A stretch of DNA of 60,755 bases, filler included, from Hausera hauseri (lineage: Eukaryota), in assembly GCA_046269625.1 (NCBI GenBank). It is 12 parts of 12 records of this genome, joined end to end, with 100 filler letters (N's around TTAATTAATTAA, not from the genome) between each part and the next. Parts side by side here need not be neighbours in the genome. Positions count along the whole stretch, not along the records: positions 30,205 to 34,357 come from JBJURY010732101.1; 11 more parts are not named here. One strand, given 5' to 3'. Position 1 is the stretch's first letter; every line of letters begins with the position of its first letter. The position numbers and the translations under genes were made by a program. Of the stretch, positions 6,002-56,685 are shown piece by piece. Below the pieces are notes generated by a model, which saw only the letters and a list, made by a program, of their open reading frames with translations, made no database searches and was not told the origin of the DNA.

Positions 6002-6003
6002 AC

Positions 6004-9700: not shown

Positions 9701-9709
9701 TAGCTAATA

Positions 9710-12601: not shown

Positions 12602-13620
12602 AATAGTCAAGTTGTTTAGCTGTCAGTAGTCAGCGCATGGTCTAAAAGTACCGTCCTTTTTTGTACAACGTGTAACGATGATGACCAAGAAGATTTGGAA
12701 CGGCGCACTATGCCGAAACGTTCTAGTTCAAGAAATTCGGCTTCTACGGGCTGTCTACGACGGGTAGCAGAGGTCGTACCTTTTGACCTATTGGACGTTG
12801 ATGCTGTGTAACTATATGGTGTAGAGTGCTGTTGGCGGGAGTGAAAGTACGATCTTTTTTAAGTACGCGTGGACATGATTTGTTCACGAATTGCTGTAAC
12901 GTTGTAGGTAACTGTGAGATATTCGGTGAAAGTGGTGAAACGGCTTGGGTAGTAGCAGATGCAATTTGTAAGTTGTTAGGTGATGTGCAGTCAAGTGGTA
13001 TTTGGTGTAAGATGGTTGAATTAAAGATGATGTTGGATTAAGTTAATTCGCTGAATGGAACTATGTTGGTTGCAGTACCACACTCATCGACATCAGATCT
13101 CGATCGTATATTCATATTATTGTTCAAAAATTTAAGAATAGAATTATTGTTTTAAAAAATAGAATTATTCATTGACTTTTTTAAGATTGACTTCCGCATT
13201 CCGGTCGACCGCGCGGTAGTCGAAACGCTATTTACATGTTCAGAAATGTCGCCAACGGTACCTTTCCTCAAACTCCGCTGACTGCAGTTAACCAGTAAGT
13301 TGTAGTGTGAGAGAAAGTCAGATCCTAGGATTGCCGACTGGACGTTAGCTACTGTAAACGTCCAGTGGAAGGTTGAAAAAAAATTCGGCAAAGTGAAAGA
13401 TAGTTTAGTCATGCCAGAAATGTGCAGCGGTTGGCCTTAAGCAGTGTATAAGTATTTGATCTTGAATGAAGTATTTTGTGCAGGAAAATTTGATGGTAGT
13501 AAAGAAATTGCTGCACCTGTATCGACGAGAAAGTCAATAGATTGTGTTGAAGGAACAGTGATTGCAGCCTTTAGAGTAAATACTGCAAAAGAGACGTTTC
13601 GGCGTTCAGAATGTGAAGCA
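12602..13620 (-). mobile_element. Ty3/gypsy LTR retrotransposon fragment (aspartic protease + RT N-terminus), degraded
   Basis: FLVDTGAAISLLP; WTFTVANVQSAILGSDFLSHYNLLVN; GIVRRSKSSWSSSLHVVQK(fs)KDGTFRPCADY*QLNNLT. Confidence 0.85.
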
Positions 13621-14341
13621 CTTCCTTTGCCAGAGTTTGCCGTGACCTCTGGCGGCGAACTTAGTTTTTTTGAAAAGATGAACTTGGACGAGTGTGAGAA
13701 GTGAAGGCAACACGTCCGTAATTCGTATTGCATTTGAAGGTGCAGCCGGGGATACATTTACATTCTTGATTTTTTGCATCATACTATAATTATAATCCTG
13801 CATACTGAAATTTTGTGTTGTGCATACTATTAACTTTATATATATTTACTCTTTTATATAAAATAATGAAGGTTCATTGTTTGGTTCGAATTGTAGGCCT
13901 CAAACGAAATAAAACAAAATAACATCTTCATGGAATGTGGGCGAGTAAAAAATGCCGAAGAAATGTACGAAATGCCGGTGACAAGATCGAGATGAAGAAA
14001 GAGCGAAATGGATAAAAGGATTTGCTCGACACGAAGCCAATTATTGTTAAAATTCAAGAGATTTTTACCAATCCATATGATCTTTACTCACAGAATGGTG
14101 TAGAAAAAAATGATTTGAATTGATTAGAAGAAAAGTATAGAAGTAGCACAGTCTAAGCAGGATATTTTCAGATTGGAGCAGTAATTATCCCAAACTATTT
14201 AAAATATATATATTCTCTGTGGGGGGGCTCAAATGAGAGAATATTTTTTTAAAAATCTGTGGCTCTTTTTTACATATGCTCCCATAACGTTGCATTTTAT
14301 TTATTTATTTTTTATAGCAACAGAATGGAATTACATAAATG

Positions 14342-14441: not shown

Positions 14442-16365
14442 CCGGCTTTATTGACGGTTGTATATTCTACTGTATCAGTCGGTTCATCCGTACATCCCAA
14501 CATATATCGTTCTGCTCTGGGAAGTACTTGTTCTTCGTGAGTTTCGACGTAAGGGTAATATTCTTCTTCTTTAATGTTCGATAGCCATTTCTCGTCACCA
14601 TATATTTCGAGATCGTAGTCCAAGTTGGTCAGGGAAATTTCGAATTGTCTGGTGTAATTGAGTGTTGGTTCATGACGGAATAAGTTTTTTCTTCCATGTT
14701 TACGCTTGTATATACATATAGCAACAATCACTGTTACAACAAGTATAATACTAGTGGGTAATACAATTACTATTAGCAAGAGTTTATTGTAACTCGATTG
14801 TAGTCCCTGTAATGGCTCAACCAATGGTACCATGGTTTTTAATGTTTCATTGTTCTTAGGATAGTCTGTGGATATTTTAAAAAGAAATCTTCCTCTCTTC
14901 ATTATTTCATTAAGTGTAGGGAATTTGAATAGTGAATTTACTCCTTTTCTGAGAGTTGTGACTTCAAACAAAGCAACTGTTTTTAATCTTCGTATTGGGT
15001 CATAATAAGTTAACTGAATGTGGGCTAGATAAGGATGACCTGATATTAATTGGGCACACTCAACATGTGTGCTAGTAATCAAAAAACAGGCGCCATTTGT
15101 ATTTTCCAATGTGACGATAAAGTCAGGATCTGGCAAACTGAATATTACACGATCCGATCTTACTTGTACATAAATGTCCAATGGCTTAAAAGAAATAAAT
15201 TGAATGCGTTCGGGGGCTTGCCTTATTCCTGCTATTATGTATGGAATTTGATTATGAACCGAATAATGAAAACTACTTAACCAAAAGGTATTTGGACAAG
15301 ATTATTGTAGTTGGAGCGTGAGAAGTATCTGTCGATTATCCTCTTTCGTACACGATATTGGAGGTCGGGAGCTTGTGACCTCTACGTTATAAAGCTCGTC
15401 AGTATATTGTTTCGCAGCACATGAAAGAGCATAACTAACTCTACTGATTTGTGGTGCTACCACTAGGATTCCCTTATCGTTGAATATCTTTGCTCCAATT
15501 CGTTTATTATCTTCACTTGAAGGTGCACACGGTATTATTGGTGCTTTTCTTTCTCTTCCTGTTACCGTACGTCGCCATATACCATTTACGAGGCGAAACA
15601 TAGTGAATATTAATAAATATTCTTGGTCAGGTCATGTATATATGCAAGTCGATTGATTATGTTCTCGGAAATAGTAAACACTATTTTGCCCAAAAGTTGT
15701 ATCGGCATATCGTGTGGTTATTTGCATTACTCTACCTTTTGGGATTTTTCTATCCCATTCAATTGGTAAGCATGGCTTTTTATAATCGGGTTGGCCTATA
15801 AACACTCTTTCTTCTAAGAATGATCTGTCGATTTTGGTTAACTCTTTCTGTTCAGGTGAATTGTCCATTAAAGATAACATAACTGTTTTTGGTTTCAATG
15901 GTATCATTATTTTGAATGTTCGATCTTCATAGAGGGGTGAATTCTTATCCTCTGATATATGAATCTGTACCGAATAAATAGTCCCAGGCATAACCTTACA
16001 ACAATTTTCCCCATATGAGGACGTAGTCGTACATAACATTTTTTCTTTTCTATACAATGTTAACGTTCCCCAATTTTCGTTTAATGTTTTATTACTATTT
16101 ATCCCAATTCGTGGATTGAATAATCTCAGGGATAAGCAATTTCTTGTGTGATTATATTGAATATACAGATATCCTGGAGTGATACCTTGCGCATCCCATG
16201 GTTCTATTTTTGGAATTCTCTTCAAGTATTTCACGAAATCCGAAAATGTATTCAACGATGCTTGAGTGATTACATTTGTTGTCTTCACTGAACTTACTGT
16301 TGGCTGTGTAAATGAATCTAGTATACAACAGACCAATATTCCCATTGGTAATAATATTCGGTGGG
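14442..16365 (-). other. receptor-like module 2 (paralog of module 1) with Tyr-rich cytoplasmic tail
   Basis: LCTTTSSYGENCCKVMPGTIYSVQI; NRQILLTLQLQ*SCPNTFW vs DRQILLTLQLPSPCPNIFW in module 1; TM LLLIVIVLPTSIILVVTVIVAICIY-KRKHGRK; tail with VEYTTV. Confidence 0.55.
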
Positions 16366-16419
16366 ATATTAAATCGTGTTTAATCCGTGATGATTGGGTC
16401 TGGACAGGTCTTTTGGTTT

Positions 16420-17720
16420 TTCGGTGTCTTTTGACGTATAATAATACTACCCATATTAATATAGAAATGAGAACAATAATGGGTACGACAATTATTAGTA
16501 GCAGATATTTATCGTCTTGTTTCGTCGTCTTAATAGATGTTTGGTTCTGCACTATTATCTTATTCTCGTCTGGTACTATTTGCCGTTCCATGTGGGTATC
16601 GGATCGTTTACCGGGTGTAATCATATGACACAGTGCTATCGGTTTTTGTTGGTATATTATTTGTATAATATAAAGACATTGAGGTTTGAGACTGTCACAA
16701 CTAATAGATGTATCCTTAAATAGTGAACATTTAACTGTATCATCATCAAATGATACCATATAATTGTTATTGGGGAAGTTAAATATGGCATTTCTGTCAT
16801 TTACTTGATAAGAAATATTCAACGGTGTAAATCAAATCGTTTGAATATGTTCGGGAAGTTGTAGACCATCGTAGGATGCATGTAATGGTAAGTTGAATGT
16901 ATCAAAATAAGTGGTTCTAATCCAGAATATATTTGGGCATGGAGATGGTAATTGTAATGTCAGCAATATTTGTCGGTCACTACCTGGTACACAAATTTCC
17001 GAAGGTTCCATACTGGAATATTCTATACTATAATTTCTATCATTTGTTAGTTTCGCTGTACATGTTATAGTGTAAGTGACGTTTTCTATTCTGGGTAGAA
17101 TTCTCATAATTCCTTTAGAGTTATCGACATCGGCGTTTATTGGTCGATCAAATTCAGGTGTCAAACGACATTTTTTACCATTGTCTTTAATGGGGTAAAC
17201 TGTTCTGACTTTTGTCCTGATTGGATCAATAGTGGTCGTTTCTATGGGTATTTCAACAAAAACAGTCCGTCGCATAGTAATATTGTAACCGAACTCATTT
17301 GATCGTATAATAATCTGTAATAACAGGAAAGTTAAAGAGTAAGTGTATCCTTGAATGACTGGGCAACACTTATTATCCTTTAATTCTGAATAAGCAACAC
17401 AAATAGGTTTATTCTTTTTAAACAGTGTTATAACTTCTCTTTCTTGTCCATTTAATTTGTGTACATAGGTAATCATCAAGCACTTTCTCTTAGGATTATA
17501 ATAGATTGAAAAAACCTTGAATGTGAATTGTCGACCGTTGTTCAGATCTAAGCTCGTATTTTCTGGTAGTTTCAAATAATCTTGATACGTAATGTGTAAA
17601 TTCCGCCTTTGATCAGGGGTGAAAATCGGAGTTTAATTCAGTTGGGGTGGTAAAATTAATTGTGCCAAAATATTAGTCATGCATAATGCTATTATACATG
17701 AAAATAACGTCATTTTTCCA
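16420..17720 (-). other. receptor-like module 1: signal peptide + Cys-containing FN3-like repeats + TM
   Basis: Signal-like MTLFSCIIALCMTNILA; ICVAYSELKDNKCCPVIQGYTYSLTF; SCDSLKPQCLYIIQI (FN3-like LxPxxxY); TM YLLLIIVVPIIVLISILIWVVLLYV followed by KRHRKTKR. Confidence 0.55.
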
Positions 17721-20700
17721 ATTGGTGATTGTATACTCTGATATTGCTGACCTGACGAGTAATTATCGACATCCTGTTGATTAACCGGTTCACGGGTGTT
17801 TTTGCTCAAGATTGGTTCTGTGCTTACTATAGAATTTATATTCTGGCTGTTGTCAACGGATTGGACGTCTACCTTAAGATTTGAGCCATTCGGTTCATTG
17901 TGATTTACATCGGTGGTAGAATTTTCTTCTTCTTCCAATACTGGTTCTAGGTTAACTTTATTTTTTATGGTAGGTTTTGGAAGGAGTTCAAGTAATTTGT
18001 CAATGTTCTCTTCCATTCTATTCCAAGCCTTTTTGTCTCTGGTAGGTCCTCTGAATTTCTTTTTCTTTCTTAAGTACTGCTTTATATTAATCATGTGCAT
18101 CACCATTTCTATCATGAACCATTGACAAGGTAACTTAGTCGATATTGCTGATCTTTGGGGTATTTTAGCCAAATACTTTATTAGATATGTCTCTTCTCCT
18201 GGTAATAAATCCATTTGGGTTAATCCTAGATAAGCCATTACTCTGTTAATCCATCGGGTTTCAAGGGCTATCTTACTGTCTATTCCGTATTTTTGAGCAA
18301 GTATATCTATTCTTTCGTCATGTAATTGTACTGAACGATAATAAATTTCCAGTATGCTGGCTTGTGTTGGATTAATTGTTTCTTTATCGGTTATTTCTAT
18401 TTCCTTAGGTTGATTTTTATTTCTGTTAAAACTATGGAAAAGAATCTTTATCATGTATTGACGAACTTCTTCTGTATCCACATCAGGTGTTAGCAAAAGG
18501 TTATTGATATGAAAATATTCCACCACTCGTTGTAACACACTCTGTTGGTAATATTCGTTATCATTATAAAAGGAGTTAATATATTGACTTTTAATCCATG
18601 CTACCACACTATGAGATATGTTGAGGTGTTCTGTTCCTAATTCCCATAACACTTGGTACACCCATCTATCCATTTCTGGAGTTGGTTCGGATAGGGTTTT
18701 TAGGCCATTGTTTAAAAGTTTAGCACAAATAAGTCTGCTGTGAGTTATCTTACTTGCTGGCGTCAAAGTATCTAATAATTTAATCTTACAGCATCTTAGA
18801 TTTGACGTATTAGGATTTTCTTCGGTGATGATTCCTCGGTTGACCAAAATATCTGAGTAGTTATCGAAACATCTTCTCATCATGTCATAATACTCGAAAT
18901 CATAGAGGTAATTCAATATCGCTTGTTTTTCTCCAGTAATTTCAACATCCTCTTCTTCTGTGTTATGAATGAACAATCTTTGCCATTCTCTTTTTATAGT
19001 TTGTTCCTTTTCCAATTCTTTAACATTAGTATAATATACATTCCAGACAGGGTCGTATGTCTTACTGATTTTCTTTTGAACTTTTTCTAGCCTTGTCTGT
19101 TGTTCGGATCTAGTTCCTTCTGTTGGTTGATTAAATCCTTTATTAAAATCCTTGATTATAGTTTGGATCATTCGTTTATATCTGGAATACCTTGAATAGC
19201 CTTGGAACTCTAACTTAGTGTTGTTAAACGCTTTAATACACAAATACATTTGTGTATACTGTTTTATAGTAGGCTTATGTATTTTTATCTGATGTAATAG
19301 ACGAGTCGTCCATATTTTATTTTTATATTCTCCTTTATCATAACCGTATTTTTGTGCTGATGCTAAGATTTTCCTATCATAATACTCGCGTATTCGTAAT
19401 CTATAGGTGGCTTCAGGGTATTGTCTTCTTTCATAAATCTCCTTTTCCATTTGTAAATGTGGTGTATCGCTATTTATTCTCATTCGTGTATTATAAAGAT
19501 ATCTTCTTTGTGCTCTTAACCATTCTCTATCAAGATGTACTATTCCTAGCGCTAACCTGTCTATAAGATGTTCATTATGCAATATTTCTACTTCATGCCG
19601 AAGTTCTTCCAATATTTGTAAAATTGATTTTACTAATATCTTGTAATACTCTGTTCTTTCCATAATGTCAGTGACTGCTTCGATTAATTCTGTCATGAGG
19701 GGTTCATCTTCTAGTCCGGCTTCCCATAATAACCAATCTATCCATATATGTCTCTTATATTCCTCAGTATTGTTTCTGATGTTTTGAATTTTATGCGTCC
19801 ATAATCCATTAATTATATGGTCGTTACCACAGTCTTTCATCGATTCTCTAAGGATTTCCTTATCATGAGTTGATATTTTTAATCGTTTAGGTCTGCGTAG
19901 TGCTATATTAAGCAATTGATATAAGGATATGTCCCAAGTGACAAAGGATGTAAAAACTCCTGCATGTAGATTAAGAGGGTTTGTTTTCAAATATTGTTGG
20001 GCCTCTAGTGCTATTGTTTCTAAAGCATAGGCATCCCCTTGTTGAAAATATTGCTTTCCAGGATTATAAATATGCAATTTCAAATATTGATATTCAGGAG
20101 ATTGTCGTTTATCTGGAGACCTATTGATCTCCCACAAGAATATTCGTGTCCAAGTTTGCCTATAGGTTACTTCCATGTCTGATTCTTCTATCATTTCTTT
20201 GATTGATTCGATTTCATTATTTTCTGTTTTCAAACTCTTCGAATATTGTTGACGGAGAGAATGTACTATTTCATGTAGATTTTGTTTTGGGTATTGTTGT
20301 CTTAATTTAACTACTTCACTTTCTGCATTCATGTCCAATTTTCGTAATTTGTTAAGCATTTGTAATAGATGTGTCGCTTCATTAACTTCGATTGATCGTT
20401 CTACTTCATTTTTCTTGTATGCTTTGTATCTTTTTATTATCGCTGTTATATTTCGGTAGGATGAATTGTCCCAAGTATTTCCTTTAGTTATTTCGTTATT
20501 TCTTATTGTATCACATGATTTTAATAGTAGAAATTTGTCTTCTGCTGATACTTCCTCATACGTTTTCCCAAATTCTATTAAAATAGTATCAATTATTGAT
20601 TTAAATATATTATTTTCTGATATAATGTACCGTTCTATGGCTATTCTATTAAGTTCCCTCTGTATTTCTTCGTTATCCATCCAAGGTATATCTTCCAATT

Positions 20701-22555
20701 CTGCCCTTGGCCATGTGTGACTTTTTGTCGTCTCCTTTGTAGGATTATTTGCTGATTCTTGCAGTAAACGCTGTATATAAGGATCCTTTGACCATGGGTT
20801 TTCAGTTATCTCTATTTCGGATATCATGTAACTTAATACTATTTTCGGGGCTAGTATGTCTGAAATTTCACCTAAGAATCTTTCTCTATTAGCCTGTCTC
20901 TTCTTTTCCCATTGCCTTTTTGCAAATTGAATTAGTTCGGTTAGTTGTTCGATTGCGTAGATTGCCAATATATATGATAGAAATTTCACATACTTCGCAT
21001 AGTCTAGTTTATTTGTATTGATAGGTTGTGCAGCACAACCATTTATTAAACAGCATGTTACTAAGGTTGATAAAAGTATTGGATTGGGTCTAACATAACT
21101 TCCTTCATTTTCTTCGTAATCAGGAGGTGGTAGTTGTTTGATGGTCTTTTTATAATGTTTTATTACTCGGCAAAATCTATAGAGCGCTACCACTATTAAC
21201 GCAACTATCGTGCTACTAGCTAAACCTATTAGAAACATTAGTAGTAAAAATGATTTATAATCTATGACTGGTAAGGCCGGAATAACTGCATAATCAATTT
21301 GACTTGCTTCAGTTGAGGTTACATTAAATGCTGAGAAGACTATAGGTATTGCTAATCGTTTATAAACGTATGATGTTTTGCCAGAGACGTCATCGTACTT
21401 TGGAGGTGGTTCCTCTTTTGCTGCTTCTACATCTAATGTTAAATGTTCTTTCCTTTTCATTTCTTTTTGTATTTTATACGATCTCTTAATCAATATGGCA
21501 ATGTAACTAGTTAATGCTAAAACGAATATTATTAGTAGCATTAGTGACATCACTTCCATAGTTTGACTATATATATATATCTCCTTATTACAAGTTTTGG
21601 CCTTAGACATAGGTATCAAGCTATTCTCAATCATGTATCCACTAGTCGTTGGTAGTATAACTCGTCCGGTAGAATTAAATCGTTTATATCGATTAATCCT
21701 CTTATTGAAGAATATTATCGCTCCTATTATAAGGCTAATTAGAAGTGTCAATATTACTGAAGAAATTGTATATTCCAATATGGAAATCGGAGGGATTGTT
21801 GACTTACTGACTTGCGTTGTAGTGTTGGTAATCAATTCTGCATTGGCTTTTTTAATTAGGAAGGATGGCATAAGCATTGTCGCTGCTAAAGTAAAAGGTT
21901 TAGTTTTGAATTTCACCCAATTATTAATTTTTTCTCGACCAGTTGGCTTTCTTTGTGATATTATCCTTTCCCTTTCTAACTTAAACCTTTTTGCTTTCTC
22001 GTTCGGCATAGGTAGTGAGCAAAATATTAGGCGGTATCGAATGGCATTTATTCGACCAGTTAATCCTTCGGCATTTACATCGCACATTGAATATATATCT
22101 TGATAATCTTGTTTTGATAGTTCTTGGTTTAAATTTCGTTCTAAGTATTTATTCCATAAGATCTTGATCTCCTTTTCCTCTATTATTTGTAGCGCTTCAT
22201 CATCTAACTTATCCTTCGACTCCATTATTGAATAAGCCGTAATGCAATGTGTATATACATTTCCTTTACATTGCTTTGTTAGTTCTAATCCGAACCATTC
22301 GTATAAGGTTAAGTTATAATTAATTATACTGCACATTTCAAAATCGTTTACATAATCGTTTATGCCTGGTAATTCATCCTCTATCTGTTTCTTACCATGC
22401 TTGACTGGTAAGGGTGCTCTATCTCCTCGTAGAAATCTCGTTAAAAATTTTCTTTCGGCTTCACTTCCTACGAATAAAGGTTGGAAATCCTCATTGGATC
22501 CGATTACAAGTGTTTCATTATCATTGAAACTATGCCTTATATTTATTAAGTCCAC
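17633..22555 (-). CDS. largest intact segment (1640 aa) of the polyprotein: alternating signal-like/TM segments, two PPxY motifs, helical Trp repeats
   Basis: Uninterrupted 4.9-kb ORF in AT-rich DNA; TM stretches ISSVILTLLISLIIGAIIFF, VMSLMLLIIFVLALTSYIAILI, FLLLMFLIGLASSTIVALIVVALY; PPPKY and PPPDY. Confidence 0.8.
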   Translation of the reverse strand: MDLINIRHSFNDNETLVIGSNEDFQPLFVGSEAERKFLTRFLRGDRAPLPVKHGKKQIEDELPGINDYVNDFEMCSIINYNLTLYEWFGLELTKQCKGNVYTHCITAYSIMESKDKLDDEALQIIEEKEIKILWNKYLERNLNQELSKQDYQDIYSMCDVNAEGLTGRINAIRYRLIFCSLPMPNEKAKRFKLERERIISQRKPTGREKINNWVKFKTKPFTLAATMLMPSFLIKKANAELITNTTTQVSKSTIPPISILEYTISSVILTLLISLIIGAIIFFNKRINRYKRFNSTGRVILPTTSGYMIENSLIPMSKAKTCNKEIYIYSQTMEVMSLMLLIIFVLALTSYIAILIKRSYKIQKEMKRKEHLTLDVEAAKEEPPPKYDDVSGKTSYVYKRLAIPIVFSAFNVTSTEASQIDYAVIPALPVIDYKSFLLLMFLIGLASSTIVALIVVALYRFCRVIKHYKKTIKQLPPPDYEENEGSYVRPNPILLSTLVTCCLINGCAAQPINTNKLDYAKYVKFLSYILAIYAIEQLTELIQFAKRQWEKKRQANRERFLGEISDILAPKIVLSYMISEIEITENPWSKDPYIQRLLQESANNPTKETTKSHTWPRAELEDIPWMDNEEIQRELNRIAIERYIISENNIFKSIIDTILIEFGKTYEEVSAEDKFLLLKSCDTIRNNEITKGNTWDNSSYRNITAIIKRYKAYKKNEVERSIEVNEATHLLQMLNKLRKLDMNAESEVVKLRQQYPKQNLHEIVHSLRQQYSKSLKTENNEIESIKEMIEESDMEVTYRQTWTRIFLWEINRSPDKRQSPEYQYLKLHIYNPGKQYFQQGDAYALETIALEAQQYLKTNPLNLHAGVFTSFVTWDISLYQLLNIALRRPKRLKISTHDKEILRESMKDCGNDHIINGLWTHKIQNIRNNTEEYKRHIWIDWLLWEAGLEDEPLMTELIEAVTDIMERTEYYKILVKSILQILEELRHEVEILHNEHLIDRLALGIVHLDREWLRAQRRYLYNTRMRINSDTPHLQMEKEIYERRQYPEATYRLRIREYYDRKILASAQKYGYDKGEYKNKIWTTRLLHQIKIHKPTIKQYTQMYLCIKAFNNTKLEFQGYSRYSRYKRMIQTIIKDFNKGFNQPTEGTRSEQQTRLEKVQKKISKTYDPVWNVYYTNVKELEKEQTIKREWQRLFIHNTEEEDVEITGEKQAILNYLYDFEYYDMMRRCFDNYSDILVNRGIITEENPNTSNLRCCKIKLLDTLTPASKITHSRLICAKLLNNGLKTLSEPTPEMDRWVYQVLWELGTEHLNISHSVVAWIKSQYINSFYNDNEYYQQSVLQRVVEYFHINNLLLTPDVDTEEVRQYMIKILFHSFNRNKNQPKEIEITDKETINPTQASILEIYYRSVQLHDERIDILAQKYGIDSKIALETRWINRVMAYLGLTQMDLLPGEETYLIKYLAKIPQRSAISTKLPCQWFMIEMVMHMINIKQYLRKKKKFRGPTRDKKAWNRMEENIDKLLELLPKPTIKNKVNLEPVLEEEENSTTDVNHNEPNGSNLKVDVQSVDNSQNINSIVSTEPILSKNTREPVNQQDVDNYSSGQQYQSIQSPIGKMTLFSCIIALCMTNILAQLILPPQLN

Positions 22556-24713
22556 AGATCATATCTTCTCTATTAATTGTGGTATGGTTAATAGTTGTAG
22601 CTCGTGCATGATTATTAATTTATGTATCGGATTCTTTAAGCAAACTGATCGTATTCCGCACCTGTAATTCCAGGCTTTAATCAATTCATGCATGGGGTTA
22701 TACCATGAGAGTTTTATTCCTGATACATTCATAATTTCATCAAATATTCTTAAGCCAGAACTATAAATCATTCTTTCGTTCTCGTACTTTTCTCTAAAAG
22801 ACTTACCTTCAATTATTGCTTCCTTAGCTAGCTGACATCGAAAGCTAGTGATTAGCAATAGATTATCTTTCATTGGATGAATATTGGGGTTGTAATTCGA
22901 TTCTTTTTGATATTGTTCAAAATATTTCTTATACATGTCAATGTAAAATGATATGAGTTCTTTTCTTAGATGGACAGACAAACTCCATAGATAATTTGCG
23001 TATTGAATACTTTGGTGAATATCCCAGCCGTTTTTTTGACGAGAAGTTATCTCGTTTTGATACATTTCTAGTTTACCATTTCTGTTCGGATTGAGTCGTT
23101 TAATACTTTCTTTCTATTCCAACTGCATTACATGTTTGTCTATGGTCATTAATCATAATTCTTTTATCTGGGGCTTGATCAAGCGTAGTTACAGGGTTTC
23201 TATTATTCAAAGGTAAGTGAGTTACTCGATTAGCGACGGTATATAATTCGTATTCCTCCGTTGATAATTCGTGTCGTTTTCTGCGAAGCTTATTTATATG
23301 ACGAAATATTGGAACGACTTCGTTAACAGTCAAATATGGGTGATCTGTCACTGATTCTACCCCTTGGGCGATTAATGCTACGATTATTTGTGTCTCTTCC
23401 GAGAGTACATCAAAAGGAGAATAAATTTCTTCTTTTATATAATTGATTATGTCTTCATTTTGAGTTATTAACTGTAAATAGTGTTGATTAAGTTTCAGAT
23501 ATTTAGCATAAATAGCCAAGTTTAACTGAACTGACATATTTAGATCCAACCACCCCTCATCTTGTTCAAATCCTCTAACGAAAACTTGTCGTTCTCTTTA
23601 TCTTCTTGTATTCTTTTACGTTCATAACTCTCTATTTGCCGAGATAACGGTAGGTGTGTATATATGGTAGAGCTTTGAGATTTATTCACTTCTAATTGTT
23701 TAATGCAGTACTTATCTTTGTGATCAATATTTTCATGCTCGAGTGACAAGGATTTATTTGTCGCTATCTCCTTTAATTGTGCCGTAGTTTGACGTTTTAT
23801 TAATTTTGTTTTGATAGTTGGGACTTCTTCTAATACAGTATGTCCTTCAATCGGAGTAGTATCCTCATCGCTAGTTGATTGTTTAGTTGTTCTCATATGG
23901 AACATTAGATTAATCAATATTATCAGTATTCACCAAGTCAACGAACTTTCTGGTATATTTTTTGATATCGTTGGAGCGGCTTCTGCTGTTCCAAACAATA
24001 TAAATGGAATGATGAGTAATATTAATATTGGGTAAGTTAATCCGATACCAATTGTATTGAACTGGTTACTATTAATTGATATCTGTTCATATATTTCTTT
24101 TTCTTCATTAATATTCGAAATGCTTTCCTCAGTAGGTTCAGTTTTATTCATGTCGGTATTAATACCACTAATTACCTGATTGTTAGGGTTATTACTTCTA
24201 ACTGCCGACCAGAAAGCGTCATTCTCCTCCTTGAAACGTTTATCCGTGTATTCCTCCATCTTGGATAATTTTTTATTATAGTGTAACCCTAAGATTTGCT
24301 TGTCAAAAGCATTTGATTCTCGGAGACTCCTTATCCTAACCGCTGTTGTTTCTTTATTATTACCCATCCTTTGTCTGCAAGTGCTTATTATTCTTTTTCT
24401 TTCTTCTTTAAATGGTCTAGCTATTTCATTATTATCAGGTAGTTCGCAAAATATTATATGATACCGTACGGCATTTAATTTACCAGAAAATTCACTTGCA
24501 CTTACAGTATCAAATTTATGTATATCCATATAATCCTCTGGGGTTAATATGATGTTCTCATCTCGTTCTATATAATCATTCCATACTATCCGTGCTTCGC
24601 CTTCCTCAAATAGTTTAATATCTTCTCGAATAAGATCATCCTTTATAGCCATAAGTGTGTAAATCATCCAGCAGTTAATCGCATAAGTTTTAAACTGGGA
24701 ATTAATATTTAAC

Positions 24714-24813: not shown

Positions 24814-26330
24814 ACGCTTTTACAGAATCAGAAATCAAAAATAAGCGAGAGTTTGTACAGAAATGGCAGAGGGACGTAATTATTGAACTAAGCGATTATC
24901 ATCAGAAACGATTCATCAATTATATCGAATTAGGCGATTTACTGAAAATTATTCAGTATGCCTGTGGAAACGGAATAGGGTTTCGAACTACCCAGATAAA
25001 AGAAATACAACCAAAATTGAAAGAAATTCGAGAAAACGTACAAAGAACGAACACAGCCCTAGTAGACTACGGACTTCCAGATATTGGGAATGAACCAGAA
25101 TGGAATGCTTATTTAGAAACAATAACAGCCGAAAATCGCATATCTCCGGTATATCTAAATGAAATAGAAATGTACCTGCAGAACAGGAAATTTAACGTGG
25201 AGATGCTCCTGAACTCAGCGTTAACCGAAAATGATTTGATTGAATTAATTAATGTAAATGTTACTGAAAATAAGCTCAGACAACGCATTTTGACTTTGAC
25301 TAAATTATGCAGCGAAAACATAATTTACAACACCTTGCCGAAACTTTTAATAAAGAAGTATGCGAAAATTTGGAAAGATAAACCTGAGATAACGATGAAA
25401 ATAAGGATATCATCTGAATAGATGAATGAAAAATAATGTGAGTAACCACTCATTCCTACATAAAGGACGTAATAAAATGGTTATTATATAATGGCGGAAC
25501 AAATGAGCTAAATTATAGATTTTACTTTAGAGGGAGAATACTCGACGATTTAGAAAAGTTAATAAATTTCGGAATTATCCCCGATGAAACAAACCGGATA
25601 GTAGTAATAATATCCAATGAACAGACGAAAGAAGAAGCCACGCGAAAAGCTAAAACGGAACAATATGTAGGGCAAATCATGAAAGTACGAGATGCCGCAA
25701 TGTATTTCGAGTATTTACAGATAGATGAAGACAAGGAACAATATGACAAGAATCTAGTGCCATTAAGTAGAATGTTGACCAATGTCCCGAGACGAAACGT
25801 CCAGTCGGTAGACCGAGGAAAGCCAGAGAAGAAGTTGACTATAATGGAAAATTGATTAAGGATTTGAGGCAAATGTCGATTTCTACCCTTAACGCAGACA
25901 ATGAGGAGTTAAACGAGTTAGTGAAAAATTTAATACGTATCGTAAATTATTCAAGTCTTCGCGGAGATACATTAGACGAGAAAGAAAAAGCGATATTTAA
26001 CGCAGCTAGGACAGTGAGAAGTTTGCGTTTTAAGCTGTCAAAAAGTAGCTTAACTGACGACGCAGTAGTTGAGAAAATTATGGTGGAGAATATGACAGAA
26101 GAGCTAAGAAAAGTATTATTGTACTTGGCGATCAAGACAAGTCCAAATCGAGAGGATGAACTAAATTGAGCTACAAGCTTGGCACGAAAAGAAGCTAGAA
26201 AACTTCCGTGTAAAGTAAATTGACCAAAATTATTCGACAAGAAAGAAGACAAAAAGAATAGTAGTAACGGACTCGGAGATATTATACGGAATTTAACGAC
26301 AACAGAAAATAACAACAGAAAGAATGAATC
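24814..26330 (+). pseudogene. degraded helical polyprotein region upstream of the glycoprotein
   Basis: Frame open from the contig start (KREFVQKWQRDVIIEL...PEWNAYLETI); contains motifs resembling those of the 14442-24713 polyprotein. Confidence 0.5.
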
Positions 26331-26339
26331 AAATTGGTT

Positions 26340-28681
26340 AATCAGCTTACAACCATAATGATGCTAATGAAACAGATGGGTGCTGTTACTGTCTACGATT
26401 GCGATAGATGTAAGCTTGGACAAAAATATTCACTAATGGATTTCGAAGCATGCGAAGATGCCAGACCACACAAATTGGAAACAAAGGGGAAGAGTTATTT
26501 CCTATATTAACAACAAGAGTTAATGTCCTTGGATAGCATGGAATGTATGCTAAGACAATCTCGTAGTATTTTCCACTGTAGATTAATGCATGGACATTCC
26601 TCAATAATTAAACCAACAATCCCTCCAATTCCAATGAATTTGGAAAGACAACATTGCAAGCAAGCCCGAGAAACCGGAAGACTAAAATGGGACAGTATAA
26701 AACTAGAAATGCAGCCCGGAAAGATAATCTTAGCATACAAGATAATAGTTGGAAGGCTCGATATGAATAACGGACACTGCAGCGGAGAGGAATACGACAC
26801 CGGAAAAGGATTAGAAGCGAACTTAGTAGTAGGGGACTTTTATGAATCAGAAATGCGAGTACAGAAAGTGATTTTCCATAGCCTTACTAAGCTATATACC
26901 GAGAATCAAAAATGTCACATACAAGACGAAACCTGTACTTTCAGAAGCTCTATCGTCATATGAGAACCGCTCGTTGAAAAGGCTGTAATTTTATTAAGAT
27001 TAAGGAATTGAAGTTTAATAAAACTACTGTGACACGATACTTAGACAAATCCGATATCAGTTCAAGAACACCTACGATATTAATCTCTGATCAGCATGGA
27101 TTGAAATTCATAAAGAAAAGGAATGATTTCACGTTGTGAAGTAGTAATGTTCACCACTAACTATGTAGCCTTTGTCGTCGCAGAAACGGAGGTAAACGCG
27201 AAAACATATAACTTAGATACTCAAAACGTTCGAATCGAATATTACCTAAAAAACCGAGATGATTATTTCTATTATAAAGGGCAAGTCGGAATATCCGAAT
27301 TATACCATAAAATGATAACTAATGATTGCAAATTGGATACGGAAATTATGAGGACAAAATTAGCTCTTATTTATGCGAACCCTAAGTTAGACTCATCGAT
27401 TATTCCAATGAGAGAAGGAATCTTCGGCCGAGTTACTGTCGAGATTCTACCGACATGAGTGCGAGAAGAGATGTACCAATTAATGTCGCAGAAAAACGAT
27501 GTATACAAGAACTCCCCGTGATCTATCAAAACACTCCACGCCTAGCCATGCCCCTCACCAGGGTGTTGCTAAACAACGCAACATAACCTACAATCTTAAA
27601 GAATTGTAAAATAAGTTTGGGTGAACGAAACGGATTGGGTTAGCTTAACTAATGTAGGTGTCACTATCATTCATAAAAAACTAACTGGAACTAATTTAAC
27701 AAAAGGAATTACTGATGACAAGTTTCAGAATACATCTCAAAAAGGTATTTATAGGCTTAAAGAAATCGACGCTTTTCGGCAATTTCTCGCTTTTCCACGG
27801 CAGCCAACACACGAACTAAACCGAGCTATGGCATCAGTAGTAGACGATACCCGTTATCAGGCCAAATGGGAATCCCTGCTTGGTGCAAACCATTACCAAC
27901 GGGTAGCCACGGAAATACTCTACAAAATATGGGGAAAGTTTTTAATCTTTGGACAAGCTGCATCTGGATTTTTAGCAATCGATTTCTTGGTACAACTAGT
28001 AAAAGCGGTAATCCAAGCGGTTATAAACGGGTACGAAATATCACGCTAACAGGATTTTCCTGCAAGATCTTAATCGCAATTATCACGCCTTTCGGCAAAA
28101 TGCTTAAAGCATATGAAAAAAATCGATGGAAAAATGAAGTTGAACACCATGTCGGCTACCATAATTATAAACGACGAGCAAGATCCACAGTTCTATTGAA
28201 ACGCAAAGCTAAGAAATCAATGACACGAAGAGATAACTCCGATGATGACGAGCCTAAGGGAGGAGAAGCAATCCTCAGACAAAATAGACACAGAATGTAT
28301 TCAGTGATTAAGGCACAGTTACCCATCATGCAACCGACAGCTCCAATATATGAAGAGTGCGACAGAACATCTATTGTATCATACAAATCGGAAACTCATC
28401 GCAAACCCTTCAGCTATGAAGACCCTTATAAGGGAACAAAACAATATGGAGTATTAAAGAAAATGAAAATCACTAATCAGAGACGAGCGGAAGATGACCA
28501 TAAAATATTATACTCACCAAGAATAGCTCGTAATATAGAGTCAAGATCGACAGTTTGGGGAATACAAGGAATGAAAACGCCCCAAAATCCATTAGCACCA
28601 GAACCATTAATTAGAAACAATGCAAATAGCATAGCGATTAATGACTTATATCTTAACGAAGAACTGAAACAGTTGATCTAA
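26340..28681 (+). pseudogene. chuvirus-like (Jingchuvirales-type, class III/gB-like) envelope glycoprotein with long cytoplasmic tail
   Basis: Signal-like LTTIMMLMKQMGA then VTVYDC...YSLMDFEAC; CMLRQSRSIFHC..HGHSS...QHCKQARETG; IVGRLDMNNGHCSG; ELYHKMITNDCKLDTEIMRTKLALIYANP...GIFGRVTVEIL; GIYRLKEIDAFRQFLAFP; KIWGKFLIFGQAASGFLAI...INGYEI(fs)TGFSCKILIAI. Motif order follows chuviral G consensus as I recall it. Confidence 0.8.
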
Positions 28682-28750
28682 AATATCATTTAATCACCAG
28701 AAATAACGATAAACGAACATAAGATTTCTTCAGTTAAGCGACCAAAGGAC

Positions 28751-29554
28751 GTGTCAAGTTGTTATGGAACAGTTATGGAAGGGAGACCCTTCACAAAAGT
28801 TACCATTGAAGATAGGGAAGTCTATGCCTTAATCGACACTGGATCAGAGAAATCGTTTATCAAATTAGAATCAATACCGCCGATACTACGGAAACAATTG
28901 CAGCCAGCATCGTCGTCAGATCCAGGTAGCATAGGAGCTTTCGGGCAGGAATCCAAACCGAAATTTAAGTGGAGTCCCTTAGTTCAGTTAATGTATCAAA
29001 TTCTTCGACACGCGTTTGCCGTAATGGATCAGCTAACCGATGATGTAGCATTAGGTTGCGATATACTGAAACAATTACCTAATATCGCAATAAATTTATA
29101 TACTGGAAAACTACTGGAACTTGAACCAGTGAAAGGTATTAAAACAATAAAAGAAAGGAAACTAGGAGAGGTATGGATTCCCGTCGACGAAAATATTCCG
29201 CCCAGAACCGAAATGTTAATTTGTGCTCAAATCCGTGAAGAGGACGACCAACCAGTATACTTTGAACCACAAGACGTTAATCGAAATATCATACTTAGTA
29301 ACGTTTTGACAAGAGCAATGACAGGAAGGGTACCAGTCAGATTAGTGAATAATGCACCGACTTACGTACAATTATATGCCAATACCACCTTGGGTCATAC
29401 TTATAAGGTATCGGCAATAATAATCGAAGAAAAAACAAATATGCTGAATTTCCACCTCATGTTGAAACTAAGTTTTCAGCAGAAGCATATTGCCAATTTT
29501 ACGAATTATTATGCAAATATAAGTCGATTATTGCTCAAAATGAAGAAAATATAG
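28751..29554 (+). CDS. Ty3/gypsy aspartic protease plus degenerate dUTPase-like spacer (fragment of pol)
   Basis: VYALIDTGSEKSFI ... DVALGCDIL; then IPPRTEMLI...VPVRLVN...LYANTTLG. Confidence 0.85.
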   Translation: MSSCYGTVMEGRPFTKVTIEDREVYALIDTGSEKSFIKLESIPPILRKQLQPASSSDPGSIGAFGQESKPKFKWSPLVQLMYQILRHAFAVMDQLTDDVALGCDILKQLPNIAINLYTGKLLELEPVKGIKTIKERKLGEVWIPVDENIPPRTEMLICAQIREEDDQPVYFEPQDVNRNIILSNVLTRAMTGRVPVRLVNNAPTYVQLYANTTLGHTYKVSAIIIEEKTNMLNFHLMLKLSFQQKHIANFTNYYANISRLLLKMKKI

Positions 29555-29579
29555 GTAGAGCAAGAACATTAAAACTAAC

Positions 29580-30104
29580 CATTCCATTAAAAAAGAAACC
29601 TGGCTCCAACGACGAAATTGATCTGGAAGAGCAAAAGATGCCAAAATGGTACCCACCGCCTCATTCATTAAGGTCCTAAATAACTAAAGAAGTAAAACGT
29701 ATGTTGAAGGTTGACATAATACGACCAAGCTACCTATTTTCGTATTCACCAATACTCATGGTCAAGAAAAAGTGTACCACCAAACATCGATTCTGTATAG
29801 ATTACAGAGCCCTAAACACGCTTATGATGAAGGACTCATTCCCACTACCGTCAGTAAAGGAAACATTAGACAGATTATCAGGAACAAAATGGTTTACCAC
29901 ACTAGACTTACAATCAGGATATTGGCAAGTAGAAATTGAAGACGATCGTTATAAAACAGCAATTAAGACGCACGACGAAGTTTACGAATTTAACGTCATG
30001 CCGTTCGGTATAACAACCGGCCCAGCCATCTTCACCAGAATGATGAATAAGATGTTAATGGGACTAGATCACGCGTTCGCCTATTTAGACGATGTAATGA
30101 TAGC
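29580..30104 (+). mobile_element. Ty3/gypsy reverse transcriptase (truncated by contig end)
   Basis: HRFCIDYRALN..MKDSFPLP..ETLDRLSGTKWFTTLDLQSGYWQV...YEFNVMPFGITTGPAIFTRMM...AFAYLDDVMI (YLDD). Confidence 0.95.
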
Positions 30105-30204: not shown

Positions 30205-31149
30205 AACTTTTTCCTCTTTTTGACCGACTTTCACACTTTTCCCAAACATGCGAACCAAATGCTTCCTACATTATTCGAACGCCCATACTCTACTCTACAT
30301 TTTCTCTTATCCATCCCTAATCAAATTTTGCTACTGGAAAAAGTTCGTTTTTTTCTTTTGCATTGCCCGGCTTTCTCTTTTGCGACACAGGAAATCTCAC
30401 CGCACAACTGAACTCGCCGTTGTCGAAATGACAAAAGAGCATGCGAGCCGCTTGTGATTGGTCAATTGGTGCGTGGGTGGACCCCACCTCTAAATATTAC
30501 CCGCATATTACGTATTACATATATATTATATTACTGCTTTTTACTAATTGCGAAAAAATGTAAGTACAATTTCGATTTTCTTTCATATTATTGTATATTT
30601 CAAGAACTTTTCGGTAAATATACCTATTACTTTCGATAAAGAATGTATCTTTGTTTAAATTACTTACTAGTGTACATAATCAAAAAATTGTACGTTTTAA
30701 CAATTTTAATAAAAATTTATGATCCCATTTAATTTAACAATATATTGTACAATTTTGTTAACAGAGCGAATTGGAAATTACAAAATTCGTCTTATTTTTT
30801 GATGTTTTGGGAAACGGTCCTTAGTCGGTTAGCTAATATTCATTAAATAAAACATCATAATTTGTGTGGTTTCCAATCGGGGTATAACTTATGCCAATAG
30901 TACCAACCATAAAAAATTGACATCCAGAACTTAGAAATTTCCTATTAAGAGTAAATATAATTTGCATATTTGAATTCACCATTACCGTCCTATACAGAAT
31001 TTCATCAAAATCTGCGTTGTCGTATTTTTCGTATTGGCTTGATGAAATGGTTGAAAATATTGAAAATATATTTGAAAATGATACTGAAAATGTGAAAACT
31101 TAGAATTTCTATCGTTGGTTTCCACCGGTATCAGTGCAACAACAGTTCT

Positions 31150-32260
31150 GGGTCTTTCAATATTGGAAAATTGAAGCAATTGAACTATTTTGTTAAATTG
31201 AAGGATCTTCTAACAGAGATAGAAAATCTTAATTCACTCGAACTAATATCATTTGACATGTCTGGTTCGGAAAAGTTGACAATGCAATTACCTGCATCGG
31301 TTAAAAGGAATTCCTGCGTCAAAAAAAAGAAAAGAGATTTCAGTATTGACAAAAGTGAACAATTTAAGCTTTCTACTTGTGATTTGTCTTATGATGATCC
31401 TTTAGTGGCGGGTATAGTCCATATGTTCGGCCTTATCGTTTTTTTCAAAAATGGTGGAGACGTTATACGCTGCTCGGCGAAGGCCGGAATGGATATGTTT
31501 GGTTTAGCTGAAAAAAGAATAGGAATGCAATGAGAATGCACTCTAATGGATTGTTTATTTTGCCTCATTTGGCATGCGTCCAGACGAATTCTATACCAGC
31601 TATACGGATAGAGTGTACAACATGAACGAATGTCATTTTTATTGAGATAACAATAATGTGGTTGTTTTATGGATGTAGAGATTGGGTCAAACCATATGCT
31701 GATTTCAAATTGAGAGGGTTATAGCTATGTGGTGTGGAAATTCGTGCACGGAGGTTGTTATTTGAGATTGATACTGGAAACCTCAATATTATCTTCAAGG
31801 AATTGAGCAATAAAAGGGTTACGCGAAAATACATCGGAAGTTTCTAATATGTTTATCTCTCGGTAAGTAGGAAGGTGAAAAATCATATTTGGCTCCCAAA
31901 GGATGGTATTGGTATTGTTTACTTGCAATGTTATATAGTACGTGTAAGTCCTAACGTAATTGACAGAGCAGCAAGTTCTAGTATGTTTTTCAAGGATAGT
32001 ACATACAGAGGAGAGATTATGTTGCTATATAAAGACAAAGTTAACCGTGTGGTGTCTCATTAGCTGTAGATGGGTTTAAAGGCACATACTGGGTTTATGC
32101 GTTTCTATACTGATAATCGTAGTTCGTGCAATCAATCCAGTTTGTAGGGTAGTCGTGGTGTTTCGATTAATGTCAGCGATCGTAATAGGTATTAAGAGCT
32201 CGAGGGAAAGGGGAATAAAAATACCCAAATATATATTAAAAGTGAAGTAAACAGGGCAAT
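31150..32260 (-). pseudogene. post-integrase ORF: signal-like segment + two C-x9-CC FN3-like domains
   Basis: Continues the integrase C-terminal frame: FTFNIYLGIFIPLSLELLIPITIA; HKPSMCL*; VCTILEKHTRTCCSVNYVRTYTYYITL; YCYLNKNDIRSCCTLYPYSWYRIRL; scattered stops. Confidence 0.55.
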
Positions 32261-32299
32261 GTTCTGAGCTTCTCTTCTGGTAAATTTTGCACAATGCCG

Positions 32300-33498
32300 C
32301 TATTTTGGGTTCGTCCGTTTTGGTTATTCCTGGCTTTATTTCGTGTATAAAATCGTTGTATGGAGTAGGAGCGCAAGTTACTCGTTGAACAGACACAGCC
32401 TCGTATTTATCTGGCCCTTTCTGAACAAAAAGTGTTTGTGGGTGTACATCGACAACTTTGTACGATACTTCACATGTATGTGTTAATTTTAATGATTTGC
32501 CTTTCTTCACCACGGAGTACTGAATTATGATGTAATCCCCAATTTTATACGTATGTAGTCACGCCTTCTTGTTAAATTGCTTTTTATATCCGGCTTTACA
32601 GTTCTGTTCAAACTCTTTTGCTTCTCGTTGAAAATATTCGAGTCGCTTGAGCAAATTCTGTTATTGTTCATCCATATGATCATTGGTAAACAAGGGTGAT
32701 TGTAATAATTTCGTACGTAATGGTAGAAAAGATAGACGTCCAAACATTAATTCAAAAGGGGAATGATTGGTACTTTTGGTAGGTGTAGTGTTGATTGAGA
32801 AAGCTGTAGTTTTCAAATGATTGTGCCAATCTTTGTAGAAAGAATACCCTGAATGGTACGATTCATCCTTTTGATCATACAGTTACATTGAGGATGGTAT
32901 GATGTCGTCAATAAATGTTTGCATTGGAATATTTTTGATAATTTTTCAAAGAATTCGCTAATGAAATAGGGTGAAGGATCAGTTAGCAGCTGTTTCGAGG
33001 TACCCAATACGGCAATAATTTCATAGAAAAAGGCTTCAGCGACGGTACTACTAGTCATGTTTTTCAATGGTACCTGTACAACGTAGCGAGTGAAGTAGTC
33101 AACAAGTGAAAGTATATATTTGTATTTTGAATCCGAAGCTGGGAATGGCCCAGAGATATCCATTGCGCACATTTCCATTGGATTACGAGCTTAAAGTAAG
33201 CTTCCTAAAACGGTTTGATACGATGTCCTCTATCTTTCCTTGTAGCGCACATTTTGCATGAACGTACCCATCCTTCAATATGTTTATTTATTTGAGGCCA
33301 ATAATATTTAGCAGTTATACGCTTCAAAGTCTTATTTAAAGACGGATGGTCAGCTAAGTGTGAATTATGTTCTTGTAGCATGACGGCTTTGATGGCCGGT
33401 GCAGACACCATAACCAGTTTTCGTTCCTCGATTCCTAATCGTAAAATGCCGTCTTCGATTTCTAAATTCGCTCGGTTCTTGTCATAAAACTTTTGCAT
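32300..33498 (-). mobile_element. Ty3/gypsy integrase (H2C2 zinc finger, core, C-terminal domain), degraded
   Basis: EHNSHLADHP...KYYWPQINKHIEGWVRSCKMCATRK; AMDISGPFP...KYILSLVDYFTRY...LLTDPSPYF...TTSYHPQCN. Confidence 0.92.
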
Positions 33499-33532
33499 GT
33501 GATTTGATGCGAGTCAACTAACTGTCCATTGA

Positions 33533-34357
33533 TTAGTTGCTTACTTGAACAATAAAGAGATCTTGGTTTTGTAAAATCTCGACATTTTGTACTTGGATTT
33601 GGTGTTGTTCTTGTAACATATCGTTAATTATTTTCTCATTCCAATGTTTGTCACTCTCGTTATCTAATGATTTATAGGCTGCGGCTACTATTCTTTCGTA
33701 TGGCATTTTTAAAAGTGCGTCGGCATCCATGATTTCTTTGCTAGGACGATATCGATACTCGAGATCATAATTTAAGTTCCAACTTCCATCCGAACGTAGG
33801 GATAGCAGCGCCTTGTGGTCGGTAAATATTATAATCTTATGGCCGTAGACATAATATTCGTAATGTCGCAATCCATTTCGGATGGCTAATAGCTCTAGTT
33901 CAGTAGTTGAGTATTTCCGTTTTGCATTATTCAAGCTACGTCCGCCGTAGGCGATTACATGTTCCGTTGCTTCTTCTGGATTTTGCTGAGCTAATATAAA
34001 ACCAATAGCTTTTATGTTACCATTAGTCTTCAAAATGAACGGTAATGAAAAATCCGGGTACCTCAATATTGGGGCTGACACCATTCGTTTTTTTATTTTA
34101 TCGAATGCGTTTTGGTTCTCTTCGGTCCATTCCCATTTTTGATCTTTTTGTAATAACCTATATTGAGACTGATTAATTTCTGCAAAATTGGGGATGAAGG
34201 TAGCATAAAATCCTCCAAATTCTAACCAGACTTTCATTTCATGAGCACTGGTTGGAGATGTATTCCAGTATTTTAGTTATTAACTCAGGGCTGGTTGATA
34301 TCCCTTTACTGGAAACGACAAATCCCAGGTATCTAACCTCCTTATACCATTCGCATT
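33533..34357 (-). mobile_element. Ty3/gypsy RT C-terminus/tether and RNase H, degraded
   Basis: FIPNFAEI...WEWTEENQNAFDKIK..MVSAPILRYPDFSLPFILKT...VIAYGGRSL...YSTTELELLAI...FTDHKAL. Confidence 0.92.
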
Positions 34358-53685: not shown

Positions 53686-53694
53686 TATATAAAT
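53686..53694 (+). promoter_or_regulatory. TATA box of the serine protease gene
   Basis: TATATAAAT about 30-37 bp upstream of ATG 53723. Confidence 0.5.
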
Positions 53695-53722
53695 CATTCG
53701 ACATTGTACAAAAATCATCAAC

Positions 53723-56631: not shown

Positions 56632-56685
<54 letters not shown>

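Follow-up and report, generated by a model that had tools for sequence, protein, structure and literature searches.

Locus and the reading frame behind integrase

The analyzed window is a stretch of 60,755 bases from Hausera hauseri (assembly GCA_046269625.1), made up of 12 contigs of 4-10 kb each with an identical 100-nt linker between neighbors. As these contigs are separate, their order across the linkers is no evidence of linkage. Three of them are concerned here: (i) contig 30205-34357, in which the minus-strand frame of a decayed Ty3/gypsy pol continues past integrase into a cysteine-containing tail; (ii) contig 14442-24713, which encodes a large polyprotein with receptor-like units; and (iii) contig 24814-30104, which lies between them. 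The tail comprises the following features.

32076..32558, minus strand: stop-free open reading frame (ORF) of 160 codons, covering the integrase C-terminus, a linker, the signal-like segment, and the start of domain G1
32175..32246, minus strand: hydrophobic internal signal-like segment, putatively acting as a signal
31864..32177, minus strand: domain G1, C-x27-C-x9-CC, with two in-frame stops, FN3-like by homology only
31500..31862, minus strand: domain G2, C-x32-C-x9-CC, with three in-frame stops, modeled as a seven-stranded FN3-like sandwich
31011..31499, minus strand: distal part of the frame, unassigned, with a possible weak membrane anchor and, behind it, a cluster of basic residues near 31112-31011

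All peptides quoted in the initial annotation were found where they had been placed, in a single minus-strand frame of the contig, that of the integrase C-terminus. The hydrophobic segment begins at 32246, the peptide HKPSMCL at 32099, and the two C-x9-CC patterns at 32003 and 31652. The tail had been reported as missing from the ORF track, but 32558-32076 is present in the ORF list as the stop-free ORF of 160 codons. Between integrase and the hydrophobic segment lie approximately 45 linker codons, with no long terminal repeat (LTR) and no Met ahead of the segment. At a Kyte-Doolittle (KD) score of 2.05, this segment is the only place in the 586-aa frame where a 19-aa window exceeds 1.6 KD. 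A distal hydrophobic stretch, located in low-complexity, T-rich DNA, reached a KD score of 1.55 and represents a weak anchor candidate.

From the signal to position 31410, five stops were counted in 279 codons, compared with 15.5 expected from dinucleotide shuffles, and none of 300 shuffles contained a frame as open as the tail in any of its six frames. For the distal 133 codons, the three stops observed were not significant against six-frame shuffles. The tail includes four N-glycosylation sequons and 10 cysteines in 256 residues. It is derived from coding sequence. An antisense ORF of 145 codons with a leucine-rich look (31096-31530, plus strand) overlaps the distal tail; it had no Pfam match below E 0.1, so this look is without support.

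The gypsy pol on the same contig

Upstream of the tail, the contig carries the downstream half of a pol gene and, near its other end, a candidate polypurine tract.

34240..34357, minus strand: C-terminal end of a gypsy reverse transcriptase (RT), at which the contig starts (blastp against gypsy Pol matches, 28-38 aa at 36-58%)
33788..34129, minus strand: RNase H (Pfam RT_RNaseH_2, E 1.3e-29; RT_RNaseH, E 8.3e-24)
33232..33393, minus strand: integrase H2C2 zinc-binding domain (Pfam Integrase_H2C2, E 1.4e-15)
32816..33190, minus strand: integrase core with frameshifts and stops (Pfam rve, E 0.0014, below cut-off; 28-36% to gypsy Pol matches)
32380..32846, minus strand: integrase C-terminal region (about 130 aa aligned to gypsy Pol integrase C-termini, 23-29%, 44-56 bits)
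30207..30221, minus strand: purine tract of 15 nt, two bases off the contig end, a candidate polypurine tract before the missing 3′ LTR

The minus-strand order is RT C-terminus, RNase H, H2C2, integrase core, and integrase C-terminal region, interrupted by several frameshifts and stops, and corresponds to the RT - RNase H - integrase order of Ty3/gypsy (Metaviridae) pol. One edge of this contig of 4,153 nt falls within RT. Gypsy-type traits are seen in the RNase H and integrase of the tail contig and in the RT with a YLDD motif of contig 24814-30104. We take the integrase C-terminal region (32380..32846) to be a GPY/F-type module.

The terminal purine tract is the longest purine run on the sense strand of the element (shuffle P = 0.0011), and purine runs of at least 12 nt were seen at only one of the 24 contig ends in the window. 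It has the appearance of a polypurine tract whose 3′ LTR is missing from the assembly, which would place the tail inside the element. Just upstream of it on the sense strand, the region 30330-30480 is GC-richer and contains CCAAT-like boxes. Because the tail is in frame with integrase, no LTR intervenes, and the purine tract lies downstream, the tail very probably belongs to the gypsy element.

Probable kinship with the receptor-like polyprotein

The initial annotation had matched the tail to domains of the polyprotein and regarded the locus as the best physical link between receptor-like domains and a gypsy pol. Such a link exists for the tail; it does not extend to the polyprotein, which occupies a separate contig. 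In the following, G1 and G2 denote the tail domains, L1 and L2 the CC domains opening units A and B of the polyprotein, and D0b the domain that follows L2.

14446..24712, minus strand: open-ended, intronless polyprotein of about 3,400 codons, on a separate contig
17240..17581, minus strand: L1, first domain of unit A, with C-x10-CC at 17401
15545..16222, minus strand: L2, with C-x9-CC at 16033, and D0b, forming the start of unit B and colinear with G1-G2

The polyprotein alternates between signal-like and transmembrane segments, about a dozen in all, and ends in a tandem pair of type-I receptor-like units (A and B), which are 35-40% identical across their distal domains. Its N-terminal domain (117 aa) is duplicated (24676-24326 and 22249-21902, 42% identical). 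A Pfam scan detected neither RT nor integrase within the 3,400 codons. The frame contains one short frameshifted stretch and five stops in its last 2,888 codons; compared with seven in 479, this makes the polyprotein about eight times less decayed than the gypsy tail copy, and hence a different insertion. A middle part of approximately 1,000 aa is without an assigned domain, and the cytoplasmic tail of unit B is tyrosine-rich.

The claim that the same domain appears twice behind integrase was upheld for the C-x9-CC pattern, present at both tail sites, but at a strict level not for the domain being the same (G1-G2, p = 0.16). The bare motif is not specific, since six of the 10 C-x8-11-CC occurrences in the six frames of the window are unrelated to tail or polyprotein. 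In pairwise comparisons, p-values (in brackets with cysteines fixed) were 0.0025 (0.012) for G1-L1 and 0.027 (0.10) for G1-L2, as well as 0.65 for G2-L1 and 0.0005 for L1-L2. G2-L2 reached p = 0.014, but this match was off-register. Corresponding z scores were about 9 for L1-L2, 4.2-5.7 for G1-L1, 3.2-4.3 for G2-L2, and 1.6-3.5 for G2-D0b. A two-domain colinear alignment of G1-G2 to L2-D0b of unit B gave p = 0.001 with BLOSUM45 in local mode (0.0015 with cysteines fixed) and p = 0.016 with BLOSUM62 (0.039). Among ten internal comparators, G1 and G2 matched L1, L2, and D0b best, rather than other polyprotein domains. A hidden Markov model (HMM) of G1 and G2 returned L1 as top non-self match in 1158 six-frame windows (E 0.022), and an HMM of L1, L2, and D0b returned G1 as top non-self match (E 0.32).

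Identity between tail and polyprotein domains is 13-19%. The G1-L1 alignment extends nearly gapless over about 80 residues, with an upstream CL motif at identical spacing. The domains also have a register in common, consisting of Cys(-9), hydrophobic(-6), Pro/Gly(-4/-3), and Tyr(0), and a cysteine lies nine residues before the tyrosine in seven of the nine tabulated domains. Presumably, this register corresponds to the FN3 tyrosine corner. Neither blastn nor blastp among the three contigs showed a DNA link or a significant protein link. An argument from disulfide covariation was dropped, as the domains D0b and D4 retain different cysteine partners; codon-position identity (position 2 above position 3) was computed, but is biased by the protein-guided alignment. 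A specific kinship of the tail with the polyprotein CC domains is likely but unproven, and the case rests on the shared predicted fold, the cysteine/tyrosine register, and the colinear spacing.

Predicted folds

The AlphaFold model of the tail was computed from a three-row alignment, and that of L1 and D4 from a polyprotein-only alignment without any tail sequence. G2 was modeled as a seven-stranded sandwich with moderate confidence (predicted local distance difference test, pLDDT, 53-67 across the domain). Top Foldseek matches of G2 were FN3 domains of fibronectin and cytokine receptors. VIA-align superimposed G2 on a fibronectin FN3 domain with Z 8.3 over 89 aligned residues (root-mean-square deviation 2.7), and FN3 proteins made up most of the list.

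L1 was likewise predicted as a seven-strand sandwich (pLDDT 70-85; D4, 67-83). For unit A, fibronectin FN3 tandems were the best Foldseek matches (E 5.7e-7), with 74 matches at E 0.001 or better. Matches to viral folds in BFVD were generic phage tail FN3/Ig proteins, and fusion glycoproteins (class II, gB) were absent from the listed fold matches, an absence that does not rule them out. Compared with FN3 domains of fibronectin, cytokine receptors, and receptor phosphatases, the domains are alike in the seven-stranded sandwich and the tyrosine-corner-like register; we assume that their C'-E cysteine pair is positioned as in cytokine receptor domains. They differ from known FN3 domains in lacking a Pfam or PDB sequence match, in a structural identity of only 6-16%, in an extra CC pair, and in having no WSxWS motif by eye. 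The models thus point to an FN3-like fold in the tail, which we consider probable. The FN3-like character claimed at the outset is borne out by the model of G2, but not by that of G1.

Relatives in databases

Protein databases yielded no relatives of tail or polyprotein, the queries against large collections being polyprotein, pol, and env rather than the tail itself. With the 399-aa L2-D0b ORF (15632-16831), phmmer returned a single match (E 1.2e-5) among 1.84 billion representatives, a helical repeat protein that was judged spurious. The 1,641-aa ORF matched none of 5,855 candidates (902-2,872 aa in length), and the gB region none of 2,922 (969-3,086 aa), a length window that probably left out most relatives. 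The RNase H query identified 21 generic gypsy Pol proteins with 30-42% identity. ESM Atlas gave no usable match for two natural ORF stretches (neither unit B nor the tail being among them), and PDB sequence searches returned nothing useful.

Env and the neighboring gypsy contig

Contig 24814-30104 contains a further set of gypsy genes on its plus strand.

26511..28184, plus strand: fusion glycoprotein of gB type (Monjiviricetes/chuvirus-like), decayed and located before protease (Pfam Monjiviricetes_fusion, E 1.3e-33)
28778..30104, plus strand: gypsy protease and N-terminal RT, ending just past YLDD at the contig edge (Pfam RVP, E 6.5e-5; RVT_1, E 9.6e-20)

Its decayed plus strand reads unknown ORFs, AT-hook, gB-type env, protease, and RT, i.e. 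a Burro-like ENV-POL order. A ubiquitin-like segment upstream of env (25442-25660) had a weak PDB match only, and a possible dUTPase-like spacer was seen by eye between protease and RT. The RT of this contig stops 30-35 residues before the RT of 30205-34357 starts (as judged from 10 of the 21 references, which match both), and decay is heavy in either contig. The two could derive from a single element, or from one family, with ENV-POL order, provided that contig 30205-34357 is inverted.

The tail had been placed in the slot usually occupied by env. Its position behind integrase agrees with this; an env in a functional sense is not supported, as no env family matched and a recognizable gB-type env is found before protease-RT on the neighboring contig. 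In Pfam, the tail matched no family at E 0.05, with two unrelated weak matches at E up to 10, and no sequence match to the F or gB fusion glycoprotein families was found. The same scan did detect the decayed gB env of contig 24814-30104. Only about 105 residues separate the signal from G2, which argues against class II domains I and II ahead of it. The tail itself is probably not a fusogen.

Interpretation

Our preferred explanation, to which we give a probability of roughly 55%, is that the contig holds the 3′ part of a dead Ty3/gypsy copy whose Pol frame runs past integrase into an accessory FN3-like surface protein, orphan-family kin of the polyprotein units. In the active ancestor, the hydrophobic segment would have served as an internal signal, threading the downstream part into the endoplasmic reticulum, where it would have been cut from Pol, glycosylated, and disulfide-bonded. 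The product would be a tandem FN3-like protein on the surface of the cell or particle, or a secreted one; as the membrane anchor is uncertain, secretion may have been its fate. Together with the receptor-like units of polyprotein 14442-24713, the tail would form one orphan family; the polyprotein itself may represent a related element or virus that was inserted more recently. The tail protein may have mediated attachment or adhesion to the target cell, beside a separate gB-type fusion protein. This role is proposed tentatively, with a ligand decoy or immune modulator as the main alternative. Two described systems offer precedents: Atlas, with a single in-frame Gag-Pol-Env polyprotein (PMC9094657, in the part available), and Burro, in which env lies in frame between gag and pol and accessory domains are numerous (PMC6431247, likewise).

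Several results weigh against this explanation. The fusion to integrase is known from one decayed copy, and a lost stop codon is a possible alternative; neither the hydrophobic segment nor a post-integrase CC motif was found in any of the 21 gypsy Pol relatives. No clear membrane anchor was found after G2. With respect to the fold, G1 was not folded by AlphaFold (pLDDT below 50), G2 had no Foldseek match at E 0.001 or better and its Z of 8.3 is at the edge of values from common sandwiches, and L1 alone scored FN3 level with C2 and Ig-like folds (Z 6.5-8). None of the five domains matched Pfam fn3 at E up to 10. With respect to kinship, profile comparison beyond the cysteine spacing, proposed in the initial annotation as a check, was borderline to failing: next to the HMM E-values of 0.022 and 0.32, hhalign of tail versus polyprotein was not significant, with probabilities below 1%. 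An HMM of L1 and L2 had neither G1 nor G2 in its top ten. In an hhalign control, the D4 profile outscored the L1+L2 profile against G1 and G2, and in a left-out test G2 and D0b were recovered by no profile. Finally, the link to the gB contig is based only on complementary RT ends, and scores of the two RT/RNase H halves were uncorrelated over 16 references (rho -0.02).

The low profile probabilities and identities, the non-specific motif, and the non-significant G2-L1 and G1-G2 comparisons would also fit an FN3-like cargo that is related to the polyprotein CC domains only through a generic fold, its cysteine pattern being convergent. We regard this as rather unlikely, given that the tail and polyprotein HMMs retrieve each other as top non-self matches, that G1 and L1 align nearly gapless with the CL motif over about 80 residues, and that the two-domain colinearity has p 0.001-0.04. 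If this one copy had passively picked up a spliced piece of a host receptor (of cytokine-receptor or adhesion type), which then decayed neutrally without any role in the element, this would account for the animal fibronectins and cytokine receptors among the best fold matches and for the single copy seen; capture downstream of pol is known (PMC6431247 and PMC5408684, as far as the text available goes). This is unlikely, however, since the junction is in frame, with an internal signal that no Met precedes, since the probable relatives belong to a polyprotein that, without introns and with multiple signals, does not resemble a host gene, and since the L2-D0b ORF had no host receptor homolog among the 1.84 billion representatives.

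The polyprotein, being intronless, punctuated by signal and transmembrane segments, and free of retroelement domains in 3,400 codons, could instead suggest that a hitherto undescribed RNA virus supplied the domains through its structural polyprotein, endogenised at 14442-24713, and that the gypsy element captured a related glycoprotein piece as the gene in its env slot. Invertebrate LTR elements do acquire envelope genes from viruses, according to the accessible parts of PMC13524379 and PMC9094657, but the absence of a viral homolog among the protein sequences searched, the generic phage proteins among the BFVD matches, and a polyprotein contig without polymerase or other viral hallmark in the Pfam scan leave this origin with a small probability, a little below that of host capture. 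It is highly improbable that the tail encodes a genuine envelope fusogen, be it of a novel or an eroded type, e.g. class II, whose domain III is of FN3 topology. The env position and the FN3 topology of domain III in Atlas GC (PMC9094657, available part) speak for it; the domains begin right behind the signal without space for class II domains I and II, there are two tandem sandwiches, no env family of Pfam matched, and the listed fold matches include no fusion glycoprotein. That the frame arose by chance in non-coding or antisense DNA, or that the assembly is chimeric here, is scarcely credible: five stops in the tail, the 145-codon plus-strand ORF over its distal part, and the fragmented assembly are outweighed by the openness of the frame (unmatched in 300 shuffles), a foldable domain, a junction that is stop-free and inside the contig, and the lack of a Pfam match below E 0.1 for the plus-strand ORF.

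A more far-reaching possibility, which we consider doubtful, is that the three contigs sample one giant (over 20 kb) Burro-like gypsy family, in which host signal peptidase would cut a single polyprotein of 6,000+ residues into type-I membrane proteins. Its products would include receptor mimics built of FN3 domains, with cytoplasmic tails rich in tyrosine, as well as a fusogen of gB type before protease and a further FN3 ectodomain after integrase.

Other contigs of the window

The mix of contigs is consistent with repeat-rich unplaced contigs from an invertebrate. The linkers are arranged as follows.

5566, 9710, 14342, 24714, 30105, 34358, 38692, 42830, 47102, 51221, and 56532: linkers of 100 nt each (N44-TTAATTAATTAA-N44)

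Fragments of Polinton/Maverick-type DNA polymerase B were recognized by eye in 5666-9709 and 56632-60755, and about 340 nt at 80% are common to 5666-6000 and 46615-46950. Other gypsy fragments, also seen by eye, include a gag zinc knuckle (44000-44452, minus strand) and an aspartic protease motif (13440-13757, minus strand). The only clear host gene in the window consists of one or more exons of a trypsin-like serine protease (53693-54600, plus strand, by eye). Tandem repeats occupy 35591-36027 (unit of about 85-90 nt), 51770-52250 (43 nt), and 9240-9679 (60-130 nt).

Comparison with known elements and significance

According to the available part of PMC13524379, env of gypsy elements belongs to the classes F or gB, and the order GAG-ENV-POL occurs in flatworms, bryozoans, and nematodes. 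The env-carrying gypsy elements described there (errantiviruses) resemble the tail in that the slot after integrase holds an extracellular protein with a signal, and their GAG-ENV-POL order with a gB-type env matches contig 24814-30104; in contrast to errantivirus env, the tail falls into neither of the two classes, F or gB. The words 'fibronectin' and 'immunoglobulin' are absent from the main text of that paper. Burro/GYPSM1, a giant planarian gypsy element, has env in frame before protease and accessory domains in a huge polyprotein (PMC6431247, in the part available). Contig 24814-30104 is similar to it in its env-protease-RT order and the weak ubiquitin-like segment upstream, while the accessible text of PMC6431247 mentions no FN3 domain or post-integrase ectodomain. 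In Atlas virus and the belpaoviruses, a glycoprotein that includes a domain of FN3 topology is in frame at the C-terminus of Gag-Pol; Atlas, however, is a BEL/Pao element with a class II GN-GC fusogen, whereas the tail belongs to gypsy and has bare tandem FN3-like domains (PMC9094657, available part). Non-env accessory proteins with membrane segments or cysteines, some of them aiding spread, are described for bdelloid Vesta/Juno (ORF3; PMC5408684) and the MDG1 group (sORF2; bioRxiv 2025.03.14.642691), but in the parts available these are separate short ORFs or enzymes and not integrase-fused FN3 ectodomains. Likewise, bioRxiv 2025.03.14.642691, PMC12440569, and PMC13238120 contain no FN3 case in their accessible text. 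Full-text literature searches yielded no gypsy element with an FN3 ectodomain, although Repbase, the original Burro paper, or supplements of errantivirus surveys could hold a prior description.

The tail is probably a new form of Ty3/gypsy cargo, FN3-like and probably related to the polyprotein, the evidence being a single decayed copy from a fragmented assembly; of the two, the orphan polyprotein probably deserves more attention. The additional genes known so far from gypsy elements of invertebrates encode viral fusogens, small membrane proteins with fusogenic activity, or enzymes. If other copies confirm it, a receptor-like FN3 ectodomain behind integrase would be a new class of cargo and would suggest that proteins for cell attachment, or signaling decoys, are encoded by some retrotransposons themselves. 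Should the giant-element possibility be true, such a family would possess a two-part, herpesvirus-like entry kit for attachment and fusion, or its own cytokine-receptor decoys. Once confirmed, the finding would bear on the passage of retrotransposons between cells and on the origin of env-like genes.
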